Source of the DNA: a phage
Reading direction: 5' to 3' (one strand)
Length of the DNA: 64,000 nt
Sequence record: PV730300.1
The position numbers and the translations under genes were made by a program. The notes under the pieces were generated by a model. That model did not search any database. It saw only the letters and a list, made by a program, of their open reading frames with translations, and was not told where the DNA came from. Positions 75-43,250 of the stretch are shown here, in pieces; the first letter of the stretch is position 1; each line of letters begins with the position of its first letter.

Positions 75-836
75 TTAAATAAACACTTCAGTAATCAGTT
101 TAGACAAACGTCCACGTTTATTATCGTCCGTTGTCAGTTCAACGTATCCAATAAAATCTACAATTGGCTCACGAACACCTTCTTCATTTTCTGGATACAA
201 AAGTTCCAAAATTTGATGCAGACCATTACTACGTTTTTTAATTGCATATGTCTGGCGAACATCGCCTAATACAATAACATGCGTATTAATACCTGCACGT
301 TCAATAAGAAGTTTAAGTGTTTCTGTTGACATAAGTTGTGCTTCGTCAATAATGACGATTGTATTATCCAGGGTAGCCCCTAACAAATAGTTAGGAATAT
401 TCAATTCGATCTTACCTGATCCAATATCGTTTTCCAATTTGTTGGCTGTCATGAATTGCTGGAAAATACGTTTTGTAGATTCATAGTGTGCTGCTAGTTT
501 ATCTGTTTTATCCCCCGACAAGAAACCAATCTGATCATCTCCGACTTCAGTAGGGTTCTTGATAAAAAGTAGTTTACGGAAGTCTCCTGAGCGAAGCATC
601 TGCAAAGCTTTCCATAAAGCAACAGAGGTTTTACCAGTCCCTGCCGGAGCATTTACAACAGTCAGATCATTCCAAATCATGCTTTGAACAATCTTATTTT
701 GGTCCCCTTCAGGCATAAATTCATCTAAACGGTAATCGTCATTACCTACCGCTTTTGCTGCATAACGGCTTTCAATCTTTGCTGAATTAGCCAGTTTCTG
801 CCGTTGTGTTTTAGCTGCGGTTTTATTTCCCATAGT
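75..836 (-). CDS. phoH: PhoH-like ATPase
   Basis: Walker A GTGKTS, IIDEAQ Walker B-like motif, PhoH-like overall pattern; start moved to the internal MGNK Met, which has AAGGAG 8 nt upstream and avoids overlap with the lysozyme gene. Confidence 0.8.
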   Translation of the reverse strand, partial: TMGNKTAAKTQRQKLANSAKIESRYAAKAVGNDDYRLDEFMPEGDQNKIVQSMIWNDLTVVNAPAGTGKTSVALWKALQMLRSGDFRKLLFIKNPTEVGDDQIGFLSGDKTDKLAAHYESTKRIFQQFMTANKLENDIGSGKIELNIPNYLLGATLDNTIVIIDEAQLMSTETLKLLIERAGINTHVIVLGDVRQTYAIKKRSNGLHQILELLYPENEEGVREPIVDFIGYVELTTDDNKRGRLSKLITEVFI

Positions 837-850
837 AGCACTCCTTTTAG

Positions 851-870
851 AAGGGGCCGAAGCCCCTTTA
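851..870 (-). promoter_or_regulatory. GGGGCUUCGGCCCC hairpin between lysozyme and phoH (second copy of the nrdA/nrdB hairpin)
   Basis: Identical 14-nt stem-loop to 5139-5152; weak U tract, so processing/attenuation site rather than a clear terminator. Confidence 0.35.
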
Positions 871-1371
871 TTAGTTGTAAGCATCTAAAGTTCCAGAAGT
901 CAGAACTTTAATTACTCGTTCAGCACGGTTTGGCGTCTGGCTATACCATCGGCTTTTACGCATGTTTTTACCTGCTTGAGTATAATATGCATTGCTGATT
1001 AAAGTCAAGCTATTTTGAAACCCTTCAGCACCTTTTAACCCCAACTGGAAAACCATGTTGATTATTCCCAATTTACGAGTATCACTAACCTTATCATAGA
1101 TTGGTGATAAGATAGTACTGTTTTTTATGTCTCTCTTCACTTTTGCAACATCGTCAGCAAAGATTTGACGGGCTTCTTTTTCTGTGATAACTCCATTAGT
1201 CTTACGACCAAGAAGATTATCTAAGATTTGAATAGCCTTTGCTTTATCTTTTATTTTAGTCAGAAGGTGTCCTATGCCGACTGTCCAATAACCAAGATGG
1301 TCTTGATAAACAGTAAGCTTCAGTCCTTCATCGACTCGTAGCATATCAAACTCATCTACTACTTTAGCCAT
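871..1371 (-). CDS. e: T4-type lysozyme (endolysin)
   Basis: Translation aligns along its length with T4 lysozyme (EGL..Y.D..GYWT(V/I)GIGHLLTK, INMVFQ(L/M)G, KSRWY.QTPNRA.RVI). Confidence 0.85.
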   Translation of the reverse strand: MAKVVDEFDMLRVDEGLKLTVYQDHLGYWTVGIGHLLTKIKDKAKAIQILDNLLGRKTNGVITEKEARQIFADDVAKVKRDIKNSTILSPIYDKVSDTRKLGIINMVFQLGLKGAEGFQNSLTLISNAYYTQAGKNMRKSRWYSQTPNRAERVIKVLTSGTLDAYN

Positions 1372-1378
1372 TTACTTC

Positions 1379-1528
1379 CTATTCGTCGTCTCCTACTCCG
1401 TGATCCAACTCGTTAAACAACAGATGTTCTGGAGAAGTTTCACGTTTTGGTTTCGTTTTCTTTATGTTGGACTTCAGCTCATTTGCCAAAGCACGAGAAA
1501 AGATCTTACGTTTCTGTTTACTTTTCAT
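1379..1528 (-). CDS. small basic hypothetical protein (49 aa)
   Basis: Unlisted short ORF MKSKQKRKIFSRALANELKSNIKK... with GGAG ribosome-binding site, filling the lysozyme-glutaredoxin gap. Confidence 0.3.
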   Translation of the reverse strand: MKSKQKRKIFSRALANELKSNIKKTKPKRETSPEHLLFNELDHGVGDDE

Positions 1529-1533
1529 AATTG

Positions 1534-1794
1534 TTACTCCGCAATTTGAGCCATGAGATCACGCAGTTCGGTAAAACCGCCTACGTATGTTACCTCCCCG
1601 TTCACTTCAGACAGAATTTGTGGAAATGTGCGTGGAGGAACTCCGGTAAGATCAACAACTGTTTTAGTCATTGATTCTAAATCGTAGTCTTGGTCAAGAC
1701 TTAAATATTCAAACTGTTTATTGCGCATAGTCAATAGTTGTTTTGACATTTCACAAAATTGACAGTTAGGTTTACCAAAAATTACAAATTCCAT
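1534..1794 (-). CDS. glutaredoxin / NrdH-like redoxin
   Basis: 86 aa with CQFC active-site-like motif near the N-terminus; close to the ribonucleotide reductase genes. Confidence 0.6.
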   Translation of the reverse strand: MEFVIFGKPNCQFCEMSKQLLTMRNKQFEYLSLDQDYDLESMTKTVVDLTGVPPRTFPQILSEVNGEVTYVGGFTELRDLMAQIAE

Positions 1795-2636
1795 TACCTC
1801 TCCTTATTAAGTAATACTGCTAAAGACTGTTCAATACCTTTATTTAAATCTGATTTTGTAAGATAGTGACTGGTTACTAGTTGTGACTTCACCGGACGTG
1901 CTGCTGGAGCATTATAGGTTGAAGCTGATACCGCCGATATCTTAACAGGTTCTGGCATCTGTGTCAAGATCTTTTCCGCAAACTCCGCCCAAGAAATAAG
2001 ATGGCTTCCTGCAAAATGGTAAGTCTTAACAGACCTTGACCAACCTGTTTTTAATACTTCAAAAATAGCTTCTGCTAAATCTGGAGCATATGTTGGACAA
2101 GAGAACTGATCAGCAACAATAATAAAATCACGTTGTCCATCATTATAGCGAGACAACATGGTTTTTAGAAAGTTATTTCCAAATTCGCTATATACCGAGG
2201 CTGTTCGAATAATATATGCATTTGGGTTAACTCCTCGCACCATTTTTTCACCAAGTTCTTTCGTATACCCATAATTGTTTATTGGGTTAGGTGTAGTATC
2301 TTCAAAAATAGGATGAGAATAATTAAAAATATAGTCTGTAGAAATATGCACAAAATCAATTTTAAGTTTGCTGCACACTGCCGCAATATTTGCAGGTCCA
2401 TACGCATTAACAGCCAAAGCAGTAGCAAAATCATGTTCTGCTTTATCTACAGCCGTATAAGCAGCGCAGTTAATAACACCGTCTACATAATCTTCAACAA
2501 TAGCGTTTCGCACAGCTTCAAAATTTGTAATATCTACACGTTCTTTAGGATAAATTAAAGATACGTTTGAAGGAACCACTTTACGTAAAGCTTGTCCCAG
2601 TTGTCCATTACCACCCAATACCAGATATGTTAGCAT
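1794..2636 (-). CDS. rmlD: dTDP-4-dehydrorhamnose reductase-like (RmlD family) NAD(P)-dependent reductase
   Basis: N-terminal Rossmann motif LVLGGNGQLG, 280 aa, RmlD-like pattern; overlaps RmlC gene start. Confidence 0.6.
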   Translation of the reverse strand: MLTYLVLGGNGQLGQALRKVVPSNVSLIYPKERVDITNFEAVRNAIVEDYVDGVINCAAYTAVDKAEHDFATALAVNAYGPANIAAVCSKLKIDFVHISTDYIFNYSHPIFEDTTPNPINNYGYTKELGEKMVRGVNPNAYIIRTASVYSEFGNNFLKTMLSRYNDGQRDFIIVADQFSCPTYAPDLAEAIFEVLKTGWSRSVKTYHFAGSHLISWAEFAEKILTQMPEPVKISAVSASTYNAPAARPVKSQLVTSHYLTKSDLNKGIEQSLAVLLNKER

Positions 2637-3196
2637 ACACCCTCACTACGCAACTGTTGAAAAGATTTAGCCATTGCATCTTTTGTTGATAAGATAGGTT
2701 TAAAACCTTCGTCAAAAATCATATCGAAGCCCCAATCGATCCCTATGTCAGGATCATCCCAACGTAAACTTTGTTCGCTAGAAGGGTCGTATGGAGTTGT
2801 GCATTTGTATTCAAAGATAGCGTCCATACTCAAAACTATAAAACCATGTGCCAAACCAGGGGGAAGCCAAAACTGCGTATGGTGTCGTGCACTAAGAACA
2901 ACACCGTCCCAAGCACCGTAAGTTGGACTATCTTTACGTAAATCTACAGCGAAATCCAATACTTCTCCACTTACACAACGAACAAGCTTACCTTGCGGGT
3001 TATTTGTTTGAAAGTGCATTCCTCGCAAAACACCGAAGTTTGATTTAGACATATTATCTTGAACGAAAGTTTGTTTACCAATGATATCTTCGTATTTTTG
3101 TTCATTGTATGTTTCTAAAAAGAAACCACGATCATCTTTATAAACGTCTGGTTTGATAATTACCGCACCTTCAATTTTTGTTTTTTCTACTTTCAT
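2630..3196 (-). CDS. rmlC: dTDP-4-dehydrorhamnose 3,5-epimerase-like cupin (RmlC family)
   Basis: 188 aa; IEGAVIIKPDVYKDDRGFFLE N-terminus and HGF / cupin pattern typical of RmlC. Confidence 0.6.
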   Translation of the reverse strand: MKVEKTKIEGAVIIKPDVYKDDRGFFLETYNEQKYEDIIGKQTFVQDNMSKSNFGVLRGMHFQTNNPQGKLVRCVSGEVLDFAVDLRKDSPTYGAWDGVVLSARHHTQFWLPPGLAHGFIVLSMDAIFEYKCTTPYDPSSEQSLRWDDPDIGIDWGFDMIFDEGFKPILSTKDAMAKSFQQLRSEGVC

Positions 3197-3205
3197 TTTC
3201 TCTCC

Positions 3206-3532
3206 TTACCAGACATGTTGAGAAATAATAGTTTCCGTTTTAATGTTATATTTTTCAAGTAGCTCTGCATAGGCTTCTTTTGCATTCTCATTTACTTTCT
3301 CAAGATCTACAGCTACGCTTCCTTCTCCGCCTTCTAAATAAATACCATATATGCAATAAGACTCATCAGCATCGTAGAAAGGAGAGATGCGACTTAAGTC
3401 AAGACCTTCTTGTAAGAACCAGTTAAAATCTCCGTCAAATTCTTCTTCAATTCTAGGGTCTTCTCCTACAGCCTCTTCCCATTTATTAAAAGGTGCACCC
3501 TGTAACATACGCCATTCGATATCAATACCCAT
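3206..3532 (-). CDS. acidic hypothetical protein
   Basis: ORF with Asp/Glu-rich translation. Confidence 0.4.
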   Translation of the reverse strand: MGIDIEWRMLQGAPFNKWEEAVGEDPRIEEEFDGDFNWFLQEGLDLSRISPFYDADESYCIYGIYLEGGEGSVAVDLEKVNENAKEAYAELLEKYNIKTETIISQHVW

Positions 3533-3707
3533 TTTTCATCTCCTCCTCTTCTTGAGCAGCTTTAATAATTGCTTCATAAATATCGTAAGCAATGCCTCCA
3601 CAACATCTAGCTTCGAAAGCTATTGCTTCTGCAATGTGATCTGTTAATTCTCGTGGAATACGGACATACTCTTTTTCATTCTCCATCTTCCACCTCTTCT
3701 TTTTCAA
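3522..3707 (-). CDS. hypothetical protein (true start probably the internal ATG MENEKEY)
   Basis: ORF; internal ATG overlaps the stop of the upstream zinc-ribbon ORF. Confidence 0.3.
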   Translation of the reverse strand: MKKKRWKMENEKEYVRIPRELTDHIAEAIAFEARCCGGIAYDIYEAIIKAAQEEEEMKNGY

Positions 3708-3822
3708 AGACTACTACTCGTCCCTCACCATGACAATTCAGGCAAGGAAATGTTACCATAATTTCCACTTCCATCTGTCCAGTCCCACCGCACACAGGAC
3801 AAAAAATAAGTTTTTCAGCCAT
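3676..3822 (-). CDS. small zinc-ribbon protein (48 aa)
   Basis: Unlisted ORF MAEKLIFCPVCGGTGQMEVEIMVTFPCLNCHGEG... with two CxxC pairs; AAGGAGG 5 nt upstream. Confidence 0.35.
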   Translation of the reverse strand: MAEKLIFCPVCGGTGQMEVEIMVTFPCLNCHGEGRVVVFEKEEVEDGE

Positions 3823-4031
3823 TATTCCTCCTTAATTATTTCAAACTTGGCAACACCGTTTACAATAATATGACCACAAGACATAACTCCTAGCCAAGGA
3901 TCGCCGTTTTTCTTCGGGCGTTTACCGAATACATCACAAAAACCATTCTTCATTTCGGAGGCTTCATAAGAAGCCCCTTTGTCAAAAACGTCTTTGAATG
4001 TGTCGATTATACCAACACATCTCAAAATCAT
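3822..4031 (-). CDS. hypothetical protein
   Basis: ORF in tight gene array. Confidence 0.35.
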   Translation of the reverse strand: MILRCVGIIDTFKDVFDKGASYEASEMKNGFCDVFGKRPKKNGDPWLGVMSCGHIIVNGVAKFEIIKEE

Positions 4032-5116
4032 TAGAAGTCAAGCTCCTCATCATCAGAGAGATCTTTGTTAGCTGAATTCAATTTGTAATTAGTTAACTGA
4101 ATCTCTTGGGCTGCTGACTGAATCAAATCAGGATTCAACCATTTTTCCATCCAAGCTAAAGGACTATGTTTAGGTGCTTTAAACTTAGCTTTCATTTTCA
4201 ATCGACGATAAATAGGAGCAGCATTGAAATAAACCCACTGTTTAGACAATTCGGCGTTAAGACCTACAATAAAACGACCTTCACTAAACAGGTAGTCACA
4301 CCACTGTTCCTCTTGTTCAACAACAGTGTCGAGGATCAAAGTCAACTCTTCAATATTGTCTTCGTAAATTTTACGCCAAATTGGGTCATGCATCAATGCA
4401 TCAATTACAGCATAATCCATCTTAACATGCAAGATTTCATCTAACATAATTTTCTGGATCAGTTTACAAGCCCCAACAAACAGTTGTTGTTCTGCCATAG
4501 CAAAAGTAGCAGAGAAGGAAGATATAAACTGAATACCTTCTAATCCAATCAGGGCTACCATCCCTTTAAGAATCAGCAGTCGAAGTTCATCGTTAGCTTC
4601 AATCAATCCTAGAGCATACTTATGACCAGCTTCTTCCAACTGACCCATGATATCAGCAATGATACCCATACGATTGAAAATTTTATCATTAATCATAATC
4701 TGATTGATGACTTCGATTGGATCTGGAGTACATTGACGGATTATTTCAGAATACGTTAACGCATGGAGAACTTCCATTTCACTCTGCTTCATCATCATAG
4801 CACAGGCTTCATTGTTACTCAAGAATGGAGAGAACAAAGTGATGATTGATTTTGCAAGAGAATCATTTTCCCATTGGAACGATAAGTTTTTAATCATAAC
4901 ATCATAGTTGTTTTTAGAACAAGCTACGAAATCTTTACGTGTCTGATCCAGATTGACTTCATTCTCATCCCAATCTTGTGCTTTTTGAAGTTTGTAGAGT
5001 TTGTGCATTTCTGGATAAGTTACGTTAACAGAATCAAAGATCCCTAATTGTTCCCCTAAAAATACTGGATATTTTCCTGTTTTGTAAACTTCATTGTGTA
5101 AATTAATTGCTGCCAT
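4031..5116 (-). CDS. nrdB: ribonucleotide reductase class I small (beta) subunit
   Basis: Ferritin-like NrdB pattern (LEGIQFISSFSATFA, DEILHVKMDY); adjacent to nrdA. Confidence 0.8.
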   Translation of the reverse strand: MAAINLHNEVYKTGKYPVFLGEQLGIFDSVNVTYPEMHKLYKLQKAQDWDENEVNLDQTRKDFVACSKNNYDVMIKNLSFQWENDSLAKSIITLFSPFLSNNEACAMMMKQSEMEVLHALTYSEIIRQCTPDPIEVINQIMINDKIFNRMGIIADIMGQLEEAGHKYALGLIEANDELRLLILKGMVALIGLEGIQFISSFSATFAMAEQQLFVGACKLIQKIMLDEILHVKMDYAVIDALMHDPIWRKIYEDNIEELTLILDTVVEQEEQWCDYLFSEGRFIVGLNAELSKQWVYFNAAPIYRRLKMKAKFKAPKHSPLAWMEKWLNPDLIQSAAQEIQLTNYKLNSANKDLSDDEELDF

Positions 5117-5133
5117 TTAAAATTCTCCTCAAT

Positions 5134-5155
5134 AAAAGGGGGCCGAAGCCCCTTT
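5134..5155 (-). terminator. hairpin/attenuator between nrdA and nrdB (minus strand, UUCG tetraloop)
   Basis: Minus-strand RNA reads GGGGC-UUCG-GCCCC followed by CUUUUAUU. Confidence 0.5.
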
Positions 5156-5184
5156 ACGTTTACCCTTCTTCACCTGTTCTCCTA

Positions 5185-7428
5185 CTACATTTTACAGGCA
5201 CTACACCCTTCGTCTTCAGAATCTTCTTGTGCTAAAGAGTCTGCTGATTTTGTTCTACTATTAAGGTAATACAATGACTTGCCACCCAGTCTGGCAAAAT
5301 TCAGAATAAACTGCATCTCAGCTTTCACTGATAAACGTCCACCTACCAATTTAGAATAATCTAGCCAAGAATCACAAGAAATTCCTTGGTCCGTGAACTT
5401 GGTAAAGATACCATACATTTCTGCAAGATCTTTAGCCGGAGTATCCCAGGCGGATTGGTAGAACATTTTCAGTTTTTCGTAGTCTGGAACAATAAATAAT
5501 ACACTACCTTTCTGACTTTGTTTATACATAATAGTATCACGAACAGGATACAGAGAGTTAGTAGTATTGCTTACCAAACTGCTGGACTCATTAGGTGCAA
5601 TAGCAGCCAAGACACTGTTACGGATACCACCTTGTTCAATGATTTCAGCACGTAAGCCTTCCCAGTCCATTTTAAGATCAAAATTACCGATACTATCTAC
5701 TGTTTTAGCATAAGTGTCAATTGGTAGCCAACCTTGAGGCCATTTGGTTTTATCGATCCATTCCGCATTACCTTTTTCCTTAGCCAGACGCAGAGAGGCT
5801 TTTGCCAACCAAAAGTAATGACGTTCTGCAAGTTCATGCATTAATTTTTTAGCATAAGCATCTGAATAATTTACAAAATTGCTTGCCAAGTAATGCGCTA
5901 AGTTTGTAATACCTACACCAATAGATCTACGTGCTTTAGCAGTTATTTCGTTATGTTTAAATGGATAATCCATTGTTTCAATAACGTTGTCAATTGTCAA
6001 TACAGTGTAGTATGCAACATCCTCATATTCTTCAGGTAATACACGACCAGCAACAATAGAAGATAAGAAGCATAAAGCCAATTCTTGATCTTCTGTATTC
6101 TCACCAGTAAAGAGATCCGGCATACTGTGGAAAGCTTTAGTTGGTAAGAAGATCTCTTGACACAGGTTTGATTGATATACCGTATCCAGGAAAGGTGTAT
6201 GGTTGTTAACGTTGTCAGCAAAGAACATGTAAATACGTCCTGTTTCTGCACGTTGAACAATAATCTCTGTCAGAAGATCACGAGCCTTAACAAATTTTTT
6301 CTTAATGCGACGACGGCTTACTTTGTCATAAACTGCATCAAACTCTTCTTCACTTTTATACAAAGCTTCATAAAGTTCAGGAGCATCATCACAACTAACT
6401 AACATCCAGTCTTCGTTTTTTGCTGCTCGACGCAAGAACGAACGGTTAACAACAATAGAATAATCTAGTTTATCCACTCGTTTATCTATAGGTGTTGTTG
6501 GATTCTTCAGTCGAATCAGATCGTCGAAGTCTGGTTCAAGTATGGTAAAGGTAACTGTAGCACTACCTCCACGGCTTGCTTGCTTTGAAGCTCCAACACT
6601 ATCTTCCATCCATTTCAGATACGGAAGAAGACCACCGTGAATAATACGATTATTCTTAACACCTTGACCTGTGGCACGAGTTTGAAGATTAACACCAATA
6701 CCTGCGTTATTCAACGTATACTCATGAGCTAAGTAATTAGCAATGGCTAAAGACTCTGCTGTATCGTCTGCACGGAATAAACAACAAGACGCACTTCCTT
6801 TGATCGGAGTTCGTAGAGTTGTCAGATACGGCGATGGCAGATTAATCTTAAGATCGCTAACATAAGTATAAAGTTTTTTAATATCTTCTATACGGCGTTC
6901 TTTTGGTTGGATCTCCATAACCTTCATTGCGACACCAATGAAAAGAAACTGTGGAGACTCATGCACCACATCGTTTACTGCATCTCGAATAAGATATTTA
7001 TCCACCATTTGACGTAAAACAGAATAACCATAAGTTAGATTTTTATTATGCTTTACAATCTTACCGATTTCTTTGATCTCTTCATCAGTATAATCCATTT
7101 TAGCCCAATGACCACGTTCTACCATATCATGATAAAAGGTATTCAGTGAAGGGATACTGTGGTATCCCCCATGAGCCTGTTTGTAAATCATACCCAGAAG
7201 AAGTCTTCCTGCCATATCACTGTAAGCTTGTGTTTTCTTGTCAATACACGCTGCAATCATTGCTTTATGCAGATCACGTGTAGACACACCGTCATAACAC
7301 CGCTTCACAGCTTCTAATTCAATTTCAGACCAGTTTAGTTTACCTGCTGCAAATTCAGACCACTTGCGAAGTTTTTCTGGGTTAAACTCCTCTGTCTTAC
7401 CATTAGATTTAGTTACAAAACGAATCAA
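5185..7428 (-). CDS. nrdA: ribonucleotide reductase class I large (alpha) subunit
   Basis: 747 aa, NrdA-like, C-terminal Cys pair (CSACKM). Confidence 0.85.
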   Translation of the reverse strand: MIRFVTKSNGKTEEFNPEKLRKWSEFAAGKLNWSEIELEAVKRCYDGVSTRDLHKAMIAACIDKKTQAYSDMAGRLLLGMIYKQAHGGYHSIPSLNTFYHDMVERGHWAKMDYTDEEIKEIGKIVKHNKNLTYGYSVLRQMVDKYLIRDAVNDVVHESPQFLFIGVAMKVMEIQPKERRIEDIKKLYTYVSDLKINLPSPYLTTLRTPIKGSASCCLFRADDTAESLAIANYLAHEYTLNNAGIGVNLQTRATGQGVKNNRIIHGGLLPYLKWMEDSVGASKQASRGGSATVTFTILEPDFDDLIRLKNPTTPIDKRVDKLDYSIVVNRSFLRRAAKNEDWMLVSCDDAPELYEALYKSEEEFDAVYDKVSRRRIKKKFVKARDLLTEIIVQRAETGRIYMFFADNVNNHTPFLDTVYQSNLCQEIFLPTKAFHSMPDLFTGENTEDQELALCFLSSIVAGRVLPEEYEDVAYYTVLTIDNVIETMDYPFKHNEITAKARRSIGVGITNLAHYLASNFVNYSDAYAKKLMHELAERHYFWLAKASLRLAKEKGNAEWIDKTKWPQGWLPIDTYAKTVDSIGNFDLKMDWEGLRAEIIEQGGIRNSVLAAIAPNESSSLVSNTTNSLYPVRDTIMYKQSQKGSVLFIVPDYEKLKMFYQSAWDTPAKDLAEMYGIFTKFTDQGISCDSWLDYSKLVGGRLSVKAEMQFILNFARLGGKSLYYLNSRTKSADSLAQEDSEDEGCSACKM

Positions 7429-11002: not shown

Positions 11003-11258
11003 AATTTTCCTCCTGAATTCCTACTGCGCCGTCTTCTGGGTAGTCTGTATAATAAGCTACCCTACCTTGATAGATAACATCACCATCGCTATTGTAGATT
11101 GCTGTATCTTCTTGAATTGTTATTTCAACGTCAAGTAAATCTGGGTCTTTCTCGATGGTATAGTTCAAACCTAACATTTCAAACAGTTCGAAAATTTCGT
11201 TACCTGTTAATGTAATGCTCATATTTCCTCCTTTTATTGTGGTTAGCAGAGTATACAC
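10995..11258 (-). CDS. hypothetical protein
   Basis: ORF; preceded by a minus-strand promoter. Confidence 0.4.
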   Translation of the reverse strand: MYTLLTTIKGGNMSITLTGNEIFELFEMLGLNYTIEKDPDLLDVEITIQEDTAIYNSDGDVIYQGRVAYYTDYPEDGAVGIQEENYV

Positions 11259-11278
11259 TAATATAAAATTTTTGTCAA
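11250..11278 (-). promoter_or_regulatory. sigma70-like promoter on minus strand (TTGACA-N17-TATACT)
   Basis: rc of 11273-11278 is TTGACA, rc of 11250-11255 is TATACT. Confidence 0.5.
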
Positions 11279-11280
11279 TA

Positions 11281-11303
11281 AAAAAGGGAGCAATAAGCTC
11301 CCT
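11281..11303 (-). terminator. intrinsic terminator (minus strand)
   Basis: GGGAGC-loop-GCTCCC hairpin followed on the minus-strand RNA by a U-run. Confidence 0.5.
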
Positions 11304-13611: not shown

Positions 13612-13641
13612 TCCTAAAAAGCCTACCTCATTAAGTAGGTA
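13612..13641 (-). terminator. intrinsic terminator (minus strand)
   Basis: GCCTACCT-loop-AGGTAGGC hairpin followed by a U-run on the minus-strand RNA. Confidence 0.55.
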
Positions 13642-13677
13642 GGCATAATATCATAACTAATCCCGCAAGTCAAGAAC

Positions 13678-23969: not shown

Positions 23970-24044
23970 GGCCCTGTAGCTCAATGGGAGAGCTGTCGGC
24001 TCATAACCGATAGGTAGCTGGATCGAAACCAGCCAGGGCCACCA
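23970..24044 (+). tRNA. tRNA-Met (anticodon CAT)
   Basis: Manual cloverleaf: acceptor GGCCCTG/CAGGGCC, anticodon loop CTCATAA, CCA encoded. Confidence 0.7.
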
Positions 24045-24046
24045 AC

Positions 24047-24121
24047 GTCTTTATGGTGTAATGGATAGCACAGGAGTCTTCTAAACTCTTAGTCAAGGTT
24101 CGATTCCTTGTAAAGACACCA
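24047..24121 (+). tRNA. tRNA-Arg (anticodon TCT)
   Basis: Acceptor GTCTTTA/TAAAGAC, anticodon loop CTTCTAA, T arm CAAGG-TTCGATT-CCTTG. Confidence 0.65.
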
Positions 24122-24122
24122 G

Positions 24123-24306
24123 AACATTTTAACATGAATTAGCTCAAGTGATTTGAACCCACTACTGATCATGGTGGCAGAGAATGAGGCAAGTATGTCA
24201 GACATTATAAACAAAGGCCACGGTTATATTAGAAGACATAAATGCTCGAAGAGCACCGTTCGTTGAGAACGGGGGTTGGTGGAGTCACCATTCATGGTAA
24301 AATGTT
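24123..24306 (+). ncRNA. candidate structured small RNA 2
   Basis: 16-nt terminal helix AACATTTTAACATGAA (24123-24138) / TTCATGGTAAAATGTT (24291-24306), 15 of 16 paired, enclosing several hairpins. Confidence 0.35.
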
Positions 24307-24317
24307 TTAAAAAACTA

Positions 24318-24347
24318 TTGACAACTAACATTATTTTATGTTAGATT
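24318..24347 (+). promoter_or_regulatory. sigma70-like promoter (internal to the tRNA cluster)
   Basis: AAACTATTGACA at 24318-24323, 17 nt, TGTTAGATT-type -10. Confidence 0.45.
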
Positions 24348-24355
24348 ATAAGTAT

Positions 24356-24446
24356 GGAAGGGCAAATCGACGTGGCGACGAAAACGGTCTTGAAAACCGC
24401 CGAGCTTGAAAGAGCCTTGGGAGTTCGACTCTCCCTCCTTCCGCCA
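24356..24446 (+). tRNA. tRNA-Ser (anticodon TGA), class II
   Basis: Acceptor GGAAGGG/TCCTTCC, anticodon loop CTTGAAA, long variable arm, CCA encoded. Confidence 0.7.
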
Positions 24447-24451
24447 GATTA

Positions 24452-24537
24452 GGTAGATTGGTGAAATGGTAGCCACGACAGTTTGCTAAACTGTAGTCGG
24501 AAACGGCGTGTAGGTTCGAGTCCTACATCTACCGCCA
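24452..24537 (+). tRNA. tRNA-Ser (anticodon GCT), class II
   Basis: Acceptor GGTAGAT/ATCTACC, anticodon loop TTGCTAA, long variable arm. Confidence 0.7.
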
Positions 24538-24667
24538 AGTTCTTTTTAATATAGCTTACTTTAATAGAGTAAACTTTCGGCAGATGGCCCCCACCATCTT
24601 ACCGATAACTCATAGTTAGTGGTGTGAACACTGGCTATTTTAAAAAGAATTTAAATATTAGTATTTA

Positions 24668-24755
24668 GGTGAGTTAATTCCGTAGGGGTAGCGGGGCAGA
24701 CTGTAAATCTGTTATCATTGCGATTCGGGTGGTTCGACTCCATCACTCACCACCA
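24668..24755 (+). tRNA. tRNA-Tyr (anticodon GTA), class II
   Basis: Acceptor GGTGAGT/ACTCACC, anticodon loop CTGTAAA. Confidence 0.7.
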
Positions 24756-24761
24756 AATTAA

Positions 24762-24847
24762 GATGAGTTGGCTGAATGGTTTAAGCGGCGGACTGTTAAT
24801 CCGTGTTCGAAAGAACGATATAGGTTCAAATCCTATACTCATCGCCA
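24762..24847 (+). tRNA. class II tRNA, isotype uncertain (anticodon loop reads CTGTTAA, i.e. GTT)
   Basis: Acceptor GATGAGT/ACTCATC, T arm ATAGG-TTCAAAT-CCTAT, about 15-nt variable arm; anticodon assignment ambiguous by hand. Confidence 0.45.
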
Positions 24848-24937
24848 GAATTATGGACTTGTAGAGTTAAGGTAAACCCCCAGTCGCCAAGAGGCTTCTG
24901 AAATTGCAGGTATCGAATCCTGCCGAGTCCCAGCTTT

Positions 24938-25012
24938 GCTCCTATAGTATAATGGCTATTACAACGGTTTTGTAATCCGTGGATCTCTGTTCGATTCAGA
25001 GTGGGAGCACCA
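24938..25012 (+). tRNA. tRNA-Thr (anticodon TGT)
   Basis: Acceptor GCTCCTA/TGGGAGC, anticodon loop TTTGTAA, T arm CTCTG-TTCGATT-CAGAG. Confidence 0.6.
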
Positions 25013-25287
25013 ACACAACATTAAGAGCACTGTGATTGATCGTCGTATCCTGTGCACAAGGTCTGTTCGAAAGACAGTGTTCTTAGTATTGTGTTGATCA
25101 CACAAAAAGAGTTACCTGAAACTTGACCGGAGTAGGGTTGGATGGGGCAAAAGAAGAAGCGGCTCTCCCATCGACAGCAACGAAGAATAATATTTGACTT
25201 TGGTTTTGTATTATTTTAAGTTAGCTTACCGAACGTAGGGCTAGTCACCCAATGGGATACTCGTCACTGTCCCACTCAATAAAACTA

Positions 25288-25317
25288 TTGACAACCAATA
25301 GTAAAATGTAGTATAGT
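25288..25317 (+). promoter_or_regulatory. sigma70-like promoter (internal to the tRNA cluster)
   Basis: AAACTATTGACA at 25288-25293, about 18 nt, TATAGT. Confidence 0.45.
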
Positions 25318-25328
25318 AAAGATGTAGG

Positions 25329-25403
25329 GCGTTCTTGGTGTAGCGGTAGCATTCCGTCCTTCCAAGTCGGCGGCACGAGTTCGATCCTCGTAGAACGCTC
25401 CAA
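25329..25403 (+). tRNA. tRNA-Gly (anticodon TCC)
   Basis: Acceptor GCGTTCT/AGAACGC, anticodon loop CTTCCAA, T arm ACGAG-TTCGATC-CTCGT. Confidence 0.7.
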
Positions 25404-25500
25404 ATTATTTAATAAAGGGTTGCCAGAAAACTTTCTCTTTTACTCATGGTTTTCTCCTTCTCTCACACCTCTTCTGGTTGCCCTTCATTAAATGATTTAT

Positions 25501-25576
25501 TGGTTTGTAGTGTAGTCCGGTAGCACACGACACTTTGACTGTCGTAGGTTTGGTTCAAATCCAGACAGACCAGCCA
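25501..25576 (+). tRNA. tRNA-Gln (anticodon TTG)
   Basis: Anticodon stem CGACA/TGTCG, loop CTTTGAC, T loop TTCAAAT. Confidence 0.7.
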
Positions 25577-25581
25577 TATAA

Positions 25582-25658
25582 CGGAATTTAGCTCAGTTTG
25601 GTAGAGCATACGCTTTGGGAGCGTAGGGTCGCAGGTTCGAATCCTGCAATTCCGACCA
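25582..25658 (+). tRNA. tRNA-Pro (anticodon TGG)
   Basis: Acceptor CGGAATT/AATTCCG, D stem GCTC/GAGC, anticodon loop TTTGGGA, T arm CGCAGG-TTCGAAT-CCTGC. Confidence 0.8.
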
Positions 25659-25664
25659 ATTTAA

Positions 25665-25738
25665 TGTTTCGTAGTTCAATGGTAGAACCCACGACTGATA
25701 ATCGTGAGACACAAGTTCGATTCTTGTCGAAACAACCA
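25665..25738 (+). tRNA. tRNA-Ile (anticodon GAT)
   Basis: Acceptor TGTTTCG/CGAAACA, anticodon stem CACGA/TCGTG, loop CTGATAA. Confidence 0.75.
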
Positions 25739-25740
25739 GT

Positions 25741-25810
25741 TTCCCGTTAGACTTACAGGATAAGAGTTCCACAGCTTATTGTGATGCTGGTTCGAATCCA
25801 GCACGGGATA
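25741..25810 (+). tRNA. putative tRNA, anticodon not assignable by hand
   Basis: Canonical T arm GCTGG-TTCGAAT-CCAGC and pairing acceptor ends, but no clean anticodon arm could be folded. Confidence 0.3.
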
Positions 25811-25816
25811 CCTAAT

Positions 25817-25895
25817 AGCGGGATAGAGGAGTCTGGTCGTCCTCGCCAGTTTCATATGCTGGAGATCATCGGTTCGAATCCGATTCCCGCCTCCA
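25817..25895 (+). tRNA. tRNA-Met (anticodon CAT), possibly initiator-like or Ile2-type
   Basis: Anticodon loop TTCATAT, T arm ATCGG-TTCGAAT-CCGAT, A1-C72 mismatch at the top of the acceptor stem. Confidence 0.6.
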
Positions 25896-39620: not shown

Positions 39621-40937
39621 ATGCGTGGCGTTTTAAATATTATAGGTCAAGACCCAAACAATCCAGACAAAATTCTGGTTACATGCTCTATCTGTTCAGA
39701 AGATAAAGAACTTTATCCTCAACCTTTCAGCATGTTCAAAAGTAACTTTGGTAGGCAAACACCTTGTGGTTGCTCAAAATGTCCAAAACTAAGTGAAGAT
39801 CAAGCCTACATTGTAGCAAAGAGAGCTACAGAAGCTTTAGGATACACTTTTTTAGGTTGGAGTAAAGAATACACAGGCTCAAGTTCTACAAAAATCCGTT
39901 GTGTTTGTCCTGAACATGGGGAATGGAACACTGGTATAATTTCAACGATTCGGAAGGGTGTGGGTTGTCCAAAGTGTGTAGATCCTAGGAAAAGAAAAGA
40001 TTTAGTAAAAGCTGAAGATTTCTTGGCAACAGGCTTCTTTGAAGATGGGACTACTTTTACCAAATCTGAAAGAAAAGATAAAAATGGTTGGAGTCCTTAT
40101 TGGTTTGTTACCTGCCCTACATGTTCAAATGATAAGTTTGTAAAAGCTGGACTTTGCTCTGGTATCTTTGAAGGCATGAAGTCTAATCTTTTGAAGGGTG
40201 CTAAACCTTGTCGTTGTTCTTCAAGGTATGTATACACTGAAGAGCAATATATTTTACGAATTAACACTGAAACACCTTATAGCTTTATTCGTTGGATTGG
40301 GAAGTTTAAAGGTAATCGCTCAAAAGTTGTAGTTTTTTGCGAAGAACATGGCGGTGAGATAGAGATGACTGTTTTTGGTTTGTTATCGGGAAACCGTTGT
40401 ATTACTTGTCACGGACACAAACCGAAACCAGAGACTGACATGAAAGAACAATTGAAAAAGGTTTGTGAGGAACGTGGATACACTTTTGTAAAGCTTATTG
40501 ATTACAAATCAAATAAGAGTTCTTTTCAATACTCTTGCAAAACCCACGGCATCCAACAAATATCAATCACAAACTTTATACACGGTGAACAAGGTTGTCC
40601 AGAATGTAGAGGTAAAAATCAGACCTATGCTTATATTCACCTGGTGGAAGATGAGGGTCTTGGTATTATTGGTCTTAAATTTGGAATAACAAAAAATCCA
40701 AGAATAAGAATAAGGCAACAGAATCGACTTGCTAAATATAAACTACGCAAGTTTAAGTTATATAGATTTGAAACTGTGGCAGCTTGTCGCACCGCAGAGA
40801 AAGAAGTGAAAGACGTTTTACCTTGCGGAGTTTTCTCCCAACAAGACATTCCAGACGGGTGGACAGAGACAACTTATATCTACAACCTGGAAAACATTAT
40901 GAAAATCTTTGAAGATAATGGAGGAATACTTTGTTAG
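39621..40937 (+). CDS. homing endonuclease-like protein: five tandem Cys-rich zinc-ribbon repeats plus C-terminal T5orf172 / GIY-YIG-like domain
   Basis: Repeated Cys-pair zinc-ribbon modules (e.g. CPEHG...CPKC, CEEHG...CITC, CKTHG...CPEC); C-terminal YIHLVEDEGLGIIGLKFGIT...R...Q pattern; own ribosome-binding site (GAGGAGG); lies directly 5' of the intron core. Confidence 0.5.
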   Translation: MRGVLNIIGQDPNNPDKILVTCSICSEDKELYPQPFSMFKSNFGRQTPCGCSKCPKLSEDQAYIVAKRATEALGYTFLGWSKEYTGSSSTKIRCVCPEHGEWNTGIISTIRKGVGCPKCVDPRKRKDLVKAEDFLATGFFEDGTTFTKSERKDKNGWSPYWFVTCPTCSNDKFVKAGLCSGIFEGMKSNLLKGAKPCRCSSRYVYTEEQYILRINTETPYSFIRWIGKFKGNRSKVVVFCEEHGGEIEMTVFGLLSGNRCITCHGHKPKPETDMKEQLKKVCEERGYTFVKLIDYKSNKSSFQYSCKTHGIQQISITNFIHGEQGCPECRGKNQTYAYIHLVEDEGLGIIGLKFGITKNPRIRIRQQNRLAKYKLRKFKLYRFETVAACRTAEKEVKDVLPCGVFSQQDIPDGWTETTYIYNLENIMKIFEDNGGILC

Positions 40938-40994
40938 AAATTAACGCCTTAACTTAGGGGCTAATGTGTAGTGATACACATTATCAACTTTGTG

Positions 40995-41185
40995 AATTGC
41001 TGGGACACCCTTAGAGCCACACTACCACTGCGAATCGAAAGATGAAGCCACGGTTTGAAAAGTGTGTGGATTGGGTAATCAGCAGCCAAGCTCCGTTTAG
41101 GAGAAGGTTCAACGACTATCCCGTAAGGGAGTAGGATCAAGTGGTCCGAAGCGCAAAGCGTCTCATGTAGATGAAGATATAGTCT
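40995..41185 (+). ncRNA. group I intron catalytic core (P, Q, R, S elements)
   Basis: P-like AATTGCTGGGAC (40995-41006), Q AATCAGCAGC (41077-41086), R GTTCAACGACTA (41107-41118), S AAGATATAGTCT (41174-41185), in canonical order, with GACTAT/ATAGTC able to form P7. Confidence 0.7.
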
Positions 41186-41264
41186 AATCTGTAGGGAAAC
41201 TTACAGCAGCGAAAGCGGGGAAGAATTAACGAATCTTCCCGAATACAATGCAAAAATTAGTAAC

Positions 41265-43226: not shown

Positions 43227-43250
43227 ACCTCGCTTCGGCGGGGTTTTTTC
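43227..43250 (+). terminator. intrinsic terminator (UUCG tetraloop)
   Basis: ACCTCGC-TTCG-GCGGGGT hairpin followed by TTTTTT. Confidence 0.7.

Follow-up and report, generated by a model that had tools for sequence, protein, structure and literature searches.

Sequence record PV730300.1 is from a phage, and the stretch of 64,000 nucleotides (nt) analyzed here, referred to as the window, opens with a minus-strand block of early/middle genes that runs in one direction from position 1 to ∼22,800 (∼23 kb). The first 6 kb share 98 to 99% identity with genomes of Phapecoctavirus, the closest being ZCKP1, and the window belongs to this group of phAPEC8-like Escherichia coli myoviruses (∼150 kb; subfamily Stephanstirmvirinae). 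Two gaps in the block, one between the stop codon of a lysozyme gene and the start of phoH (site 1) and the other between nrdA and nrdB (site 2), hold copies of the same short palindrome. On the plus strand, the window contains exactly two copies of GGGGCCGAAGCCCC (853-866 and 5139-5152), and 100 dinucleotide-preserving shuffles gave none. On the minus strand, which is the sense strand at both sites, each copy reads GGGGCUUCGGCCCC (866..853 and 5152..5139), i.e., GGGGC-UUCG-GCCCC, with the UUCG loop closed by a C-G pair as in the C(UUCG)G loops of bacteriophage T4. When up to three mismatches to the 14-mer were tolerated, the extra matches in the window were unrelated hairpins only. A preliminary description of this DNA had reported identical 14-nt UUCG stem-loops in two minus-strand gaps, which was confirmed with exactly two copies. 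It placed the nrdA/nrdB copy correctly and the other one base off (854-867 instead of 853-866), named the flanking genes correctly, and was also right that only the nrdA/nrdB copy is followed by a U tract (CUUUUAUU, against UUCUAAAA at site 1).

Table 1. Coordinates of features in the PV730300.1 window
Feature	Position	Strand	Remarks
PhoH-family open reading frame (ORF)	75..833	-	Pfam E=1e-36; ATG at 833..831
Site-1 tail CUAAA, then phoH Shine-Dalgarno AGGAG (845..841)	841..850	-	Sequence
Site-1 hairpin AAGGGGC-UUCG-GCCCCUU	851..868	-	7 bp, inner five G-C; 2 nt past lysozyme stop
Phage_lysozyme-family ORF	871..1371	-	Pfam E=5e-11
nrdB	4031..5116	-	Annotation in relatives; ATG at 5116..5114
C plus UUUUAUU tract (5138..5131), then nrdB Shine-Dalgarno GAGGAG (5130..5125)	5125..5138	-	
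Mini-ORF, 14 codons, GTG...UGA	5129..5173	-	Created by scar; runs through hairpin and ends in U tract
Site-2 hairpin GGGGC-UUCG-GCCCC	5139..5152	-	5 G-C pairs; predicted -10.6 kcal/mol
HNH-family endonuclease gene scar, 32 nt	5153..5184	-	Shine-Dalgarno UAGGAGA plus first 7 codons
nrdA	5185..7428	-	Annotation in relatives
Free-standing endonuclease ORF	39621..40937	+	438 amino acids; PHROG endonuclease E=1e-89, HNH E=1e-24
Group I intron	40938-41206	+	Rfam RF00028, 92.9 bits
Third C(UUCG)G hairpin ACCUCGC-UUCG-GCGGGGU plus UUUUUCG	43227..43244	+	Just past tape-measure gene, sense

The gaps that hold the hairpins are 37 to 68 nt long and are flanked by genes on the same strand, and in the orientation of transcription the hairpins lie 2 to 32 nt past the stop codon of a minus-strand gene, the placement expected of a terminator (Table 1). 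In the gene sense, site 1 reads UAA-UA-AAGGGGC-UUCG-GCCCCUU-CUAAA-AGGAG-(7 nt)-AUG, and its hairpin (AAGGGGCUUCGGCCCCUU) was predicted at −12.1 kcal/mol. Site 2 reads GGGGC-UUCG-GCCCC-C-UUUUAUU-GAGGAG-(8 nt)-AUG. Both stems have the composition of an intrinsic terminator, with five G-C and zero to two A-U pairs around a 4-nt loop. At site 2 the U tract is adequate for a terminator, and a terminator scan made a minus-strand terminator-like call there; at site 1 the tract of the window is poor, with 3 U in the 8 nt past the G-C stem, and falls short of one. Only 22 nt separate the site-2 stem from the ATG of nrdB, and a promoter scan of the sequence past either hairpin found nothing in the 17 to 22 nt that remain of the gaps, which leave no room for a promoter between hairpin and next start. 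Folding in a context of 60 to 81 nt gained only scattered, interrupted outer pairs and gave z-scores of −0.6 and +0.8 against dinucleotide shuffles, values that are uninformative because a short G+C palindrome dominates any shuffle. The local helices of 5 to 7 bp (8 bp on the nontranscribed plus strand) fall short of the ∼20 bp of a ribonuclease (RNase) III helix. Rfam returned no match at the gathering score at either hairpin when the whole window was scanned and none at either at E≤1 over 700-5400, where the sole hit was an irrelevant weak match to a small nucleolar RNA elsewhere.

To assess the conservation of site 1, orthologous gaps were taken from IMG/VR contigs, metagenome contigs, and GenBank phages (phiWec181, PsgM04F, phi92, Paula, and phi1_175008 among them). 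This set comprised 19 distinct relatives with ∼60 to 78% DNA identity to the window over a 314-nt region; the UUCG lineage of the window is represented by 65 GenBank records with ≥99% identity to it at site 1. All 10 stem columns were invariant in the 19 relatives, compared with 24 to 33% of the columns in the flanking lysozyme and phoH coding sequences, and all four loop columns were variable. Four loops were found, UUCG in the lineage of the window and GCAA, GUAA, and GAAA elsewhere, and on the sense strand all of them belong to the extra-stable UNCG or GNRA families (classes described in PMC4371310). Their complements, CGAA, UUGC, UUAC, and UUUC, belong to neither. Were the loops arbitrary, the chance of all four falling within these 12 of the 256 possible tetramers would be (12/256)^4, or ∼5e-6. 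The stable loops are present only on the gene-sense strand, and therefore the selection is on RNA. Loop family and strand are thus the strongest evidence that selection maintains site 1 as an RNA hairpin in the gene-sense transcript. A covariation test was not useful here, as the ten stem positions are all invariant. The tails that follow the stem in the different lineages (UUCUAAAA, UUCUAUAA, UUAUAAAG, UUAUUAAG, UUAUUCAA, and UUUUAUAA) carry 3 to 5 U in their first 8 nt in the relatives, so that the quality of the U tract runs from poor to moderate and the conservation of the site lies elsewhere. The tail of phi92 and Paula, UUUUAUAA, does qualify as a terminator U tract, and the annotators of Paula marked predicted terminators on both strands at the site-1 hairpin.

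The site-2 hairpin was found after nrdA, or after an inserted HNH gene, and directly ahead of the ribosome-binding site of the next gene in every relative examined. Its forms include GGGGC-UUCG-GCCCC, GGGGC-GAAA-GCCCC, and GGGGGC-GGAA-GCCCC. phi92 has GGGGU-UUCG-GCCCC, in which the closing C-G pair has become U.G, and L006, L007, and Paula have GGGGG-CUUUGU-CCCCC, in which loss of the closing pair is offset by the change of an outer A-U pair to G-C. Four pairs never vary, one shows a one-sided change (wobble), and one shows a compensatory change. A U tract follows in all versions, always with 5 to 7 U in the next 8 nt. Across both sites, the stems are under strong purifying selection, and the caps are mostly stable tetraloops, CUUUGU at site 2 of L006, L007, and Paula being the exception.

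Overall, we consider it likely that sites 1 and 2 are intercistronic RNA stem-loops of the intrinsic-terminator class, site 2 acting as a partial terminator and site 1 as a weak terminator or stabilizer, and that the identity of the two copies is coincidental. Each would fold, in sense RNA from the leftward block of early/middle genes, as a very short all-G-C stem with an extra-stable, C-G-closed tetraloop between a stop codon and the next ribosome-binding site. Site 2 would most likely be a partial Rho-independent terminator, or attenuator, at which part of the RNA polymerases stop and leave an nrdA (or nrdA plus HNH) message with a hairpin-protected 3′ end; the remaining polymerases would read through, allowing nrdB to be expressed. 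Such a terminator would necessarily be leaky, because the gap is too short to hold a separate promoter for nrdB. Site 1 would most likely be a weak terminator or pause site, and could also act as a barrier to 3′-to-5′ exonucleases that stabilizes the upstream message. The GGGGC/GCCCC stem would be old and strongly selected at both sites, and the UUCG cap would have come to be present at both by lineage chance. RNase III action at the hairpins is unlikely because the helices are only 5 to 7 bp; this enzyme requires far longer helices of roughly two turns (∼20 bp). Cutting by RNase E in the A/U-rich tails is possible.

Several points weigh against this explanation. A stem of 5 bp is at the low end for terminators, and the terminator scan called site 1 on the plus strand only and not on the minus strand. 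The covariation at site 2 is thin, its observed score being reached by 27 of 500 shuffles. A literature search covering Phapecoctavirus, Justusliebigvirus, phi92, and phAPEC8 found no data on transcript 3′ ends, read-through, or decay, and termination and RNA stabilization are inseparable by sequence analysis.

The nrdA/nrdB gap occurs in five architectures, and the site-2 hairpin is kept in all of them. The majority of E. coli Phapecoctavirus genomes, e.g., Mt1B1_P17, have nrdA, the hairpin, and nrdB, with an 8-nt spacer and UUUUUAUU. An HNH gene lies between nrdA and the hairpin in iGC_PHA_EC001 and in phi92 (gp074), and a small ORF (phrog_17458) lies between the hairpin and nrdB in PsgM04F, L002-L007, phi1_175008, and Paula. 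ZCKP1 carries an HNH remnant ahead of the hairpin and the small ORF after it, and the window and phage DE16 alone have a scar ahead of the hairpin. The HNH product of iGC_PHA_EC001 is 218 amino acids long and matched a PHROG HNH endonuclease (E=7e-57); no Pfam model was matched by this product. The codons of the scar are GTG AAG AAG GGT AAA CGT AAA, the ATG start of the HNH gene having changed to GTG, and the scar is joined directly to the site-2 hairpin via TAAA microhomology. ZCKP1 retains a larger HNH remnant than the window. Together with the scar, the last ∼45 nt of nrdA (5153-5230, minus strand) represent an HNH-linked allele that is unlike the majority allele and is common to DE16 only, and precisely from the first base of the hairpin onward the sequence again resembles the majority allele. 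This arrangement probably reflects a co-conversion tract followed by loss of the endonuclease gene. The presence of TAAA ahead of both copies of the 14-mer was considered as a sign of duplication and rejected, as the TAAA at site 2 arose at the deletion junction and the majority allele lacks it.

The scar also created a 14-codon mini-ORF, which is probably accidental because the majority allele (Mt1B1_P17) is without it. There is a slim chance that the mini-ORF is translated, in which case ribosomes would melt the hairpin and couple nrdB expression to translation, giving a newborn leader-peptide-style attenuator made from the scar of a mobile element. At site 1, a second case of gene insertion just upstream of one of the two hairpins was seen in CYGL01000168.1 (L152, phi92-like), where an ORF of 320 amino acids (199-1161) is inserted between the lysozyme gene and the hairpin. 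Inspection by eye suggests a helix-turn-helix-like segment at the N terminus of this ORF, DEDD-exonuclease-like motifs, and a CxxC pair at the C terminus.

Since insertions and deletions abut the hairpins, the palindromes could instead have a DNA-level role, as recombination or insertion landmarks, as the target or boundary of homing-endonuclease cassettes, or as a terminator carried by the HNH gene. The HNH gene ends 7 to 8 nt ahead of site 2 in iGC_PHA_EC001 and phi92, the HNH deletion of the window extends precisely up to the first G of the stem, right where similarity to the majority allele begins, and the metagenomic relative has its inserted ORF just upstream of the site-1 hairpin. However, a role in DNA would not predict the strand asymmetry, i.e., stable tetraloops on the sense RNA only. 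Moreover, the HNH-free relatives PsgM04F, L002-L007, phi1_175008, and Mt1B1_P17 carry the site-2 hairpin right after nrdA, so the hairpin predates the HNH gene and was not imported with it; a candidate reading of the hairpin as part of a mobile HNH cassette was rejected on the same ground. Insertion of promoterless endonuclease genes between a stop codon and a pre-existing terminator would be the simpler reading, by analogy with the dependence of T4 mobE on upstream transcription (PMC2790892). We therefore regard a DNA-level role as quite unlikely.

The next best alternative takes the exact repeat at face value. A factor of the phage or the host (RNase III, RNase E, an antiterminator, or an RNA-binding protein) would recognize GGGGCUUCGGCCCC as a shared, sequence-specific site and so process or regulate both transcripts in coordination. 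The two exact copies in the window are what this predicts, as is the GGGGC/GCCCC stem, noted as invariant at both sites across the subfamily (the variant forms of site 2 are given above). For a genome-wide count, the 99%-identical relative ZCKP1 (NC_047994.1; 150,925 bp), the closest complete genome, was used. It contains three exact copies of the 14-mer, all on the minus (sense) strand, two of them at the orthologous sites and the third (3225-3238) between a Sir2-like gene and its neighbor. A near-copy, GGGGC-UUCU-GCCCC, lies past the DNA polymerase gene in the sense orientation (84749-84762), and all four of these hairpins have a U-rich stretch past the stem, with a Shine-Dalgarno sequence and an ATG after it. 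There is a slim chance that this set of nearly identical GGGGC-UUCN-GCCCC hairpins is a dedicated punctuation signal, used by mobile endonuclease genes as ready-made terminators. Strong hairpins were defined as those with at least five pairs (G.U allowed) and at least four G-C pairs. By this measure all 9 strong UUCG hairpins of ZCKP1 are intergenic and in the sense orientation, with stems that differ, and UUCG is jointly the commonest strong tetraloop (n = 9) together with CCAT (n = 9). The window likewise has a third C(UUCG)G hairpin (43227..43244), a canonical terminator with a stem unlike the 14-mer.

The loops at the two sites were then compared within single genomes. The pairs at sites 1 and 2 are GCAA and UUCG in PsgM04F and the contig of L002/L009, GAAA and U-UUCG-G in phi92, GUAA and GAAA in the contigs of L003/L010 and L004/L013, GUAA and GGAA in phi1_175008, and GAAA and CUUUGU in Paula and the contigs of L006/L011 and L007/L015. 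UUCG is present at both sites in the lineage of the window only. The sequence is thus not conserved across both sites as a shared recognition element would be; the loops differ in all lineages but one, with UNCG exchanged for GNRA and vice versa, and such wholesale replacement fits selection for stability rather than sequence-specific contact. One match among ∼7 lineages with ∼5 acceptable caps is the chance expectation. Because the loops vary independently and the UUCG pair occurs only in the window's lineage, the exact repeat does not appear to be a shared recognition site, and the identity of the copies is, on this evidence, best read as a coincidence of one phage lineage and not as a functional linkage. 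From general knowledge, a helix of 5 to 7 bp is too short for RNase III, and Rfam holds no matching family. In addition, the UUCG loop is reported in a review to be bound by no protein (PMC4371310).

The same 14-mer also forms the core of hairpins in unrelated phages. At least 120 IMG/VR contigs carry it, with a G+C content of 33 to 68% among the matches listed. The number of matches was rejected as evidence of enrichment, since by a rough estimate a random 14-mer would also be expected many times. Among the matches listed, 122 distinct contexts were compared. The stem was extended by at least one Watson-Crick pair in 74% (25% expected) and by at least two in 51% (6% expected). A run of at least five T in the next 8 nt was found in 54 cases on the UUCG strand versus 21 on the other strand (p=2e-4), and a Shine-Dalgarno-like motif came next in 19 versus 1. 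From these contexts, the 14-mer appears to be a generic, recurrently evolved core of phage intercistronic terminator hairpins. A shared sequence-specific site is accordingly very doubtful in our judgment, and the proposal in the preliminary description that an exact repeat points to a shared processing or regulatory site was not borne out, given that the loops differ within the genomes of relatives and that the 14-mer recurs in unrelated viral contigs. The genome-wide count suggested there did reveal further copies in ZCKP1, but these belong to a general class of hairpins of the terminator type. Its contrast between a regulatory site and a terminator was false, as both hairpins are of the terminator class and under selection. 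Two of its other points stood: the hairpins are not chance, both being conserved in orthologous gaps across the subfamily as sense-strand RNA structures, and the nrdA/nrdB copy is supported as attenuator-like in that it looks like a leaky intra-operon terminator.

Least credible is that two unrelated, functionless G+C-rich palindromes are identical by accident: a 5-bp G-run stem with the commonest stable loop is a simple solution carried by many unrelated phages, and the extra TAAA identity is a by-product of the HNH deletion junction, but the 14-mer was absent from the 100 shuffles, both hairpins are kept in orthologous gaps, where their stems are better conserved than the neighboring coding sequence, and the strong UUCG hairpins of ZCKP1 are all intergenic and sense. 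The conservation refutes any form of this reading without function; coincidental identity alone survives and is already part of the explanation preferred here.

Selected terminator-class stem-loops with coincidentally identical caps have counterparts in several known systems. Tuerk et al. reportedly described C(UUCG)G hairpins in the intercistronic mRNA of bacteriophage T4 in 1988. The present hairpins are alike in having an exceptionally stable UUCG loop with a C-G closing pair and in their intergenic, sense-strand location in a large lytic coliphage. They differ in belonging to Stephanstirmvirinae and not Tevenvirinae and in flanks without sequence homology. C(UUCG)G hairpins occur in T4 mRNA and were first noticed there (PMC4371310). 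Compared with the Rho-independent terminators of E. coli and its phages, the present sites share a G+C-rich stem, a 4-nt loop, a U tract, and a location past the stop codon, and site 2 has all of these sequence features in every relative. Unlike such terminators, site 1 of the window is without an adequate sense U tract, the stems are only 5 to 7 bp, and both sites are intra-operon; being inside operons without a downstream promoter, both hairpins must be leaky. UUCG and GNRA loops are said to be overrepresented in terminators (d'Aubenton Carafa et al., 1990).

The closest parallel is the T4 nrdA-mobE-nrdB region, where a weak intrinsic terminator, 30 to 50% efficient, was mapped experimentally between nrdA and nrdB (Wilson and Edgell 2009, PMC2790892). 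It is a tetraloop hairpin in the 5′ end of the HNH gene mobE, which is promoterless and needs upstream transcription (PMC2790892). In both phages a free-standing HNH-family endonuclease gene without an evident promoter is found between nrdA and nrdB, the gap is an insertion hotspot, and a tetraloop hairpin with a U tract lies within it. The hairpin starts 21 nt past the scar start codon in the window and 27 nt past the mobE AUG in T4. However, the T4 terminator is present only in mobE-carrying phages, inside the 5′ end of mobE, whereas the present hairpin occurs whether or not the HNH gene is there and lies 3′ of that gene. In T4, nrdB also has a middle promoter that lies within mobE; no such promoter is evident in the gap of the window.

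Intercistronic hairpins that stabilize mRNA include the REP elements in malEFG and the hairpins of the puf operon. Site 1 resembles them as a stable intercistronic stem-loop without a good U tract that could block 3′ exonucleases and set message levels within an operon; REP and puf elements are of greater length and for the most part show no sequence relationship to it. At homologous positions of rRNA, the replacement of UUCG by GNRA tetraloops and vice versa was reportedly described by Woese, Winker, and Gutell in 1990. The exchange at the present sites is similar in that a loop is swapped between two stable families on a constant stem, and it differs in that these are terminator-type hairpins of phage mRNA.

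Other features of the window and of ZCKP1 were recorded during the analysis. The strong tetraloops of ZCKP1 include CCAT 9 times and ATGG, on the other strand, 7 times, which suggests a second repeated hairpin family. On the minus strand of the window, a canonical terminator hairpin, AGGGAGC-UUAUU-GCUCCCU, at 11303-11285 runs into UUUUUAUU; directly past it lies a sigma-70 promoter close to consensus, TTGACA-17-TATACT (whole unit, 11250-11303). A promoter-like site and a hairpin are paired in much the same way at 13621-13673, also on the minus strand. These two are true unit boundaries, unlike the two intra-operon hairpins. Eleven tRNA genes are clustered at 23970-25892 (plus strand), where the leftward block gives way to the rightward block, and a GGGGC-UUU-GCCCC hairpin lies just downstream of this cluster at 26415-26427. 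Between the two sites, at 1794-3196 (minus strand), the only rhamnose-nucleotide genes are dTDP-4-dehydrorhamnose reductase-like and 3,5-epimerase-like. ESCO5, AV126, tuntematon, and phAPEC8_ev052 have ∼2.8 kb extra at this position, with dTDP-glucose 4,6-dehydratase and glucose-1-phosphate thymidylyltransferase genes. Because these two genes are missing from the window at 1794-3196, its rhamnose-nucleotide pathway is incomplete.

A mobile cassette was also identified at the tape-measure gene (39621-41249, plus strand). It is missing from 63 of the 65 close relatives and is common to phage nepoznato only. By comparison with the intron-less ZCKP1, the group I intron spans ∼40951-41249 and splits the tape-measure gene one base past codon 6. 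A U precedes the 5′ splice site, the intron ends in G, and splicing would restore A-S-K-I-S. Because the intron interrupts the gene, ORF finders mis-start it at GTG 41265. With a free-standing endonuclease gene beside an ORF-less intron, the layout resembles "collaborative homing."

The exchange of loops at site 1 and the fixed position of site 2 are of specialist interest and leave current understanding unchanged. The former provides a natural experiment in which an orthologous mRNA hairpin has kept a constant stem and exchanged UUCG for GNRA caps and the reverse, as would be expected of selection for stability on the sense strand. The nrdA/nrdB hairpin appears as a fixed landmark, with an HNH gene and a small ORF gained or lost on either side of it, in parallel with nrdA-mobE-nrdB of T4. 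The regulatory signals of Phapecoctavirus and Justusliebigvirus phages, which are collected for therapy against pathogenic E. coli, have so far been predicted by software only, and the two hairpins would provide the first evidence-based operon punctuation in these genera, a result of modest practical value.

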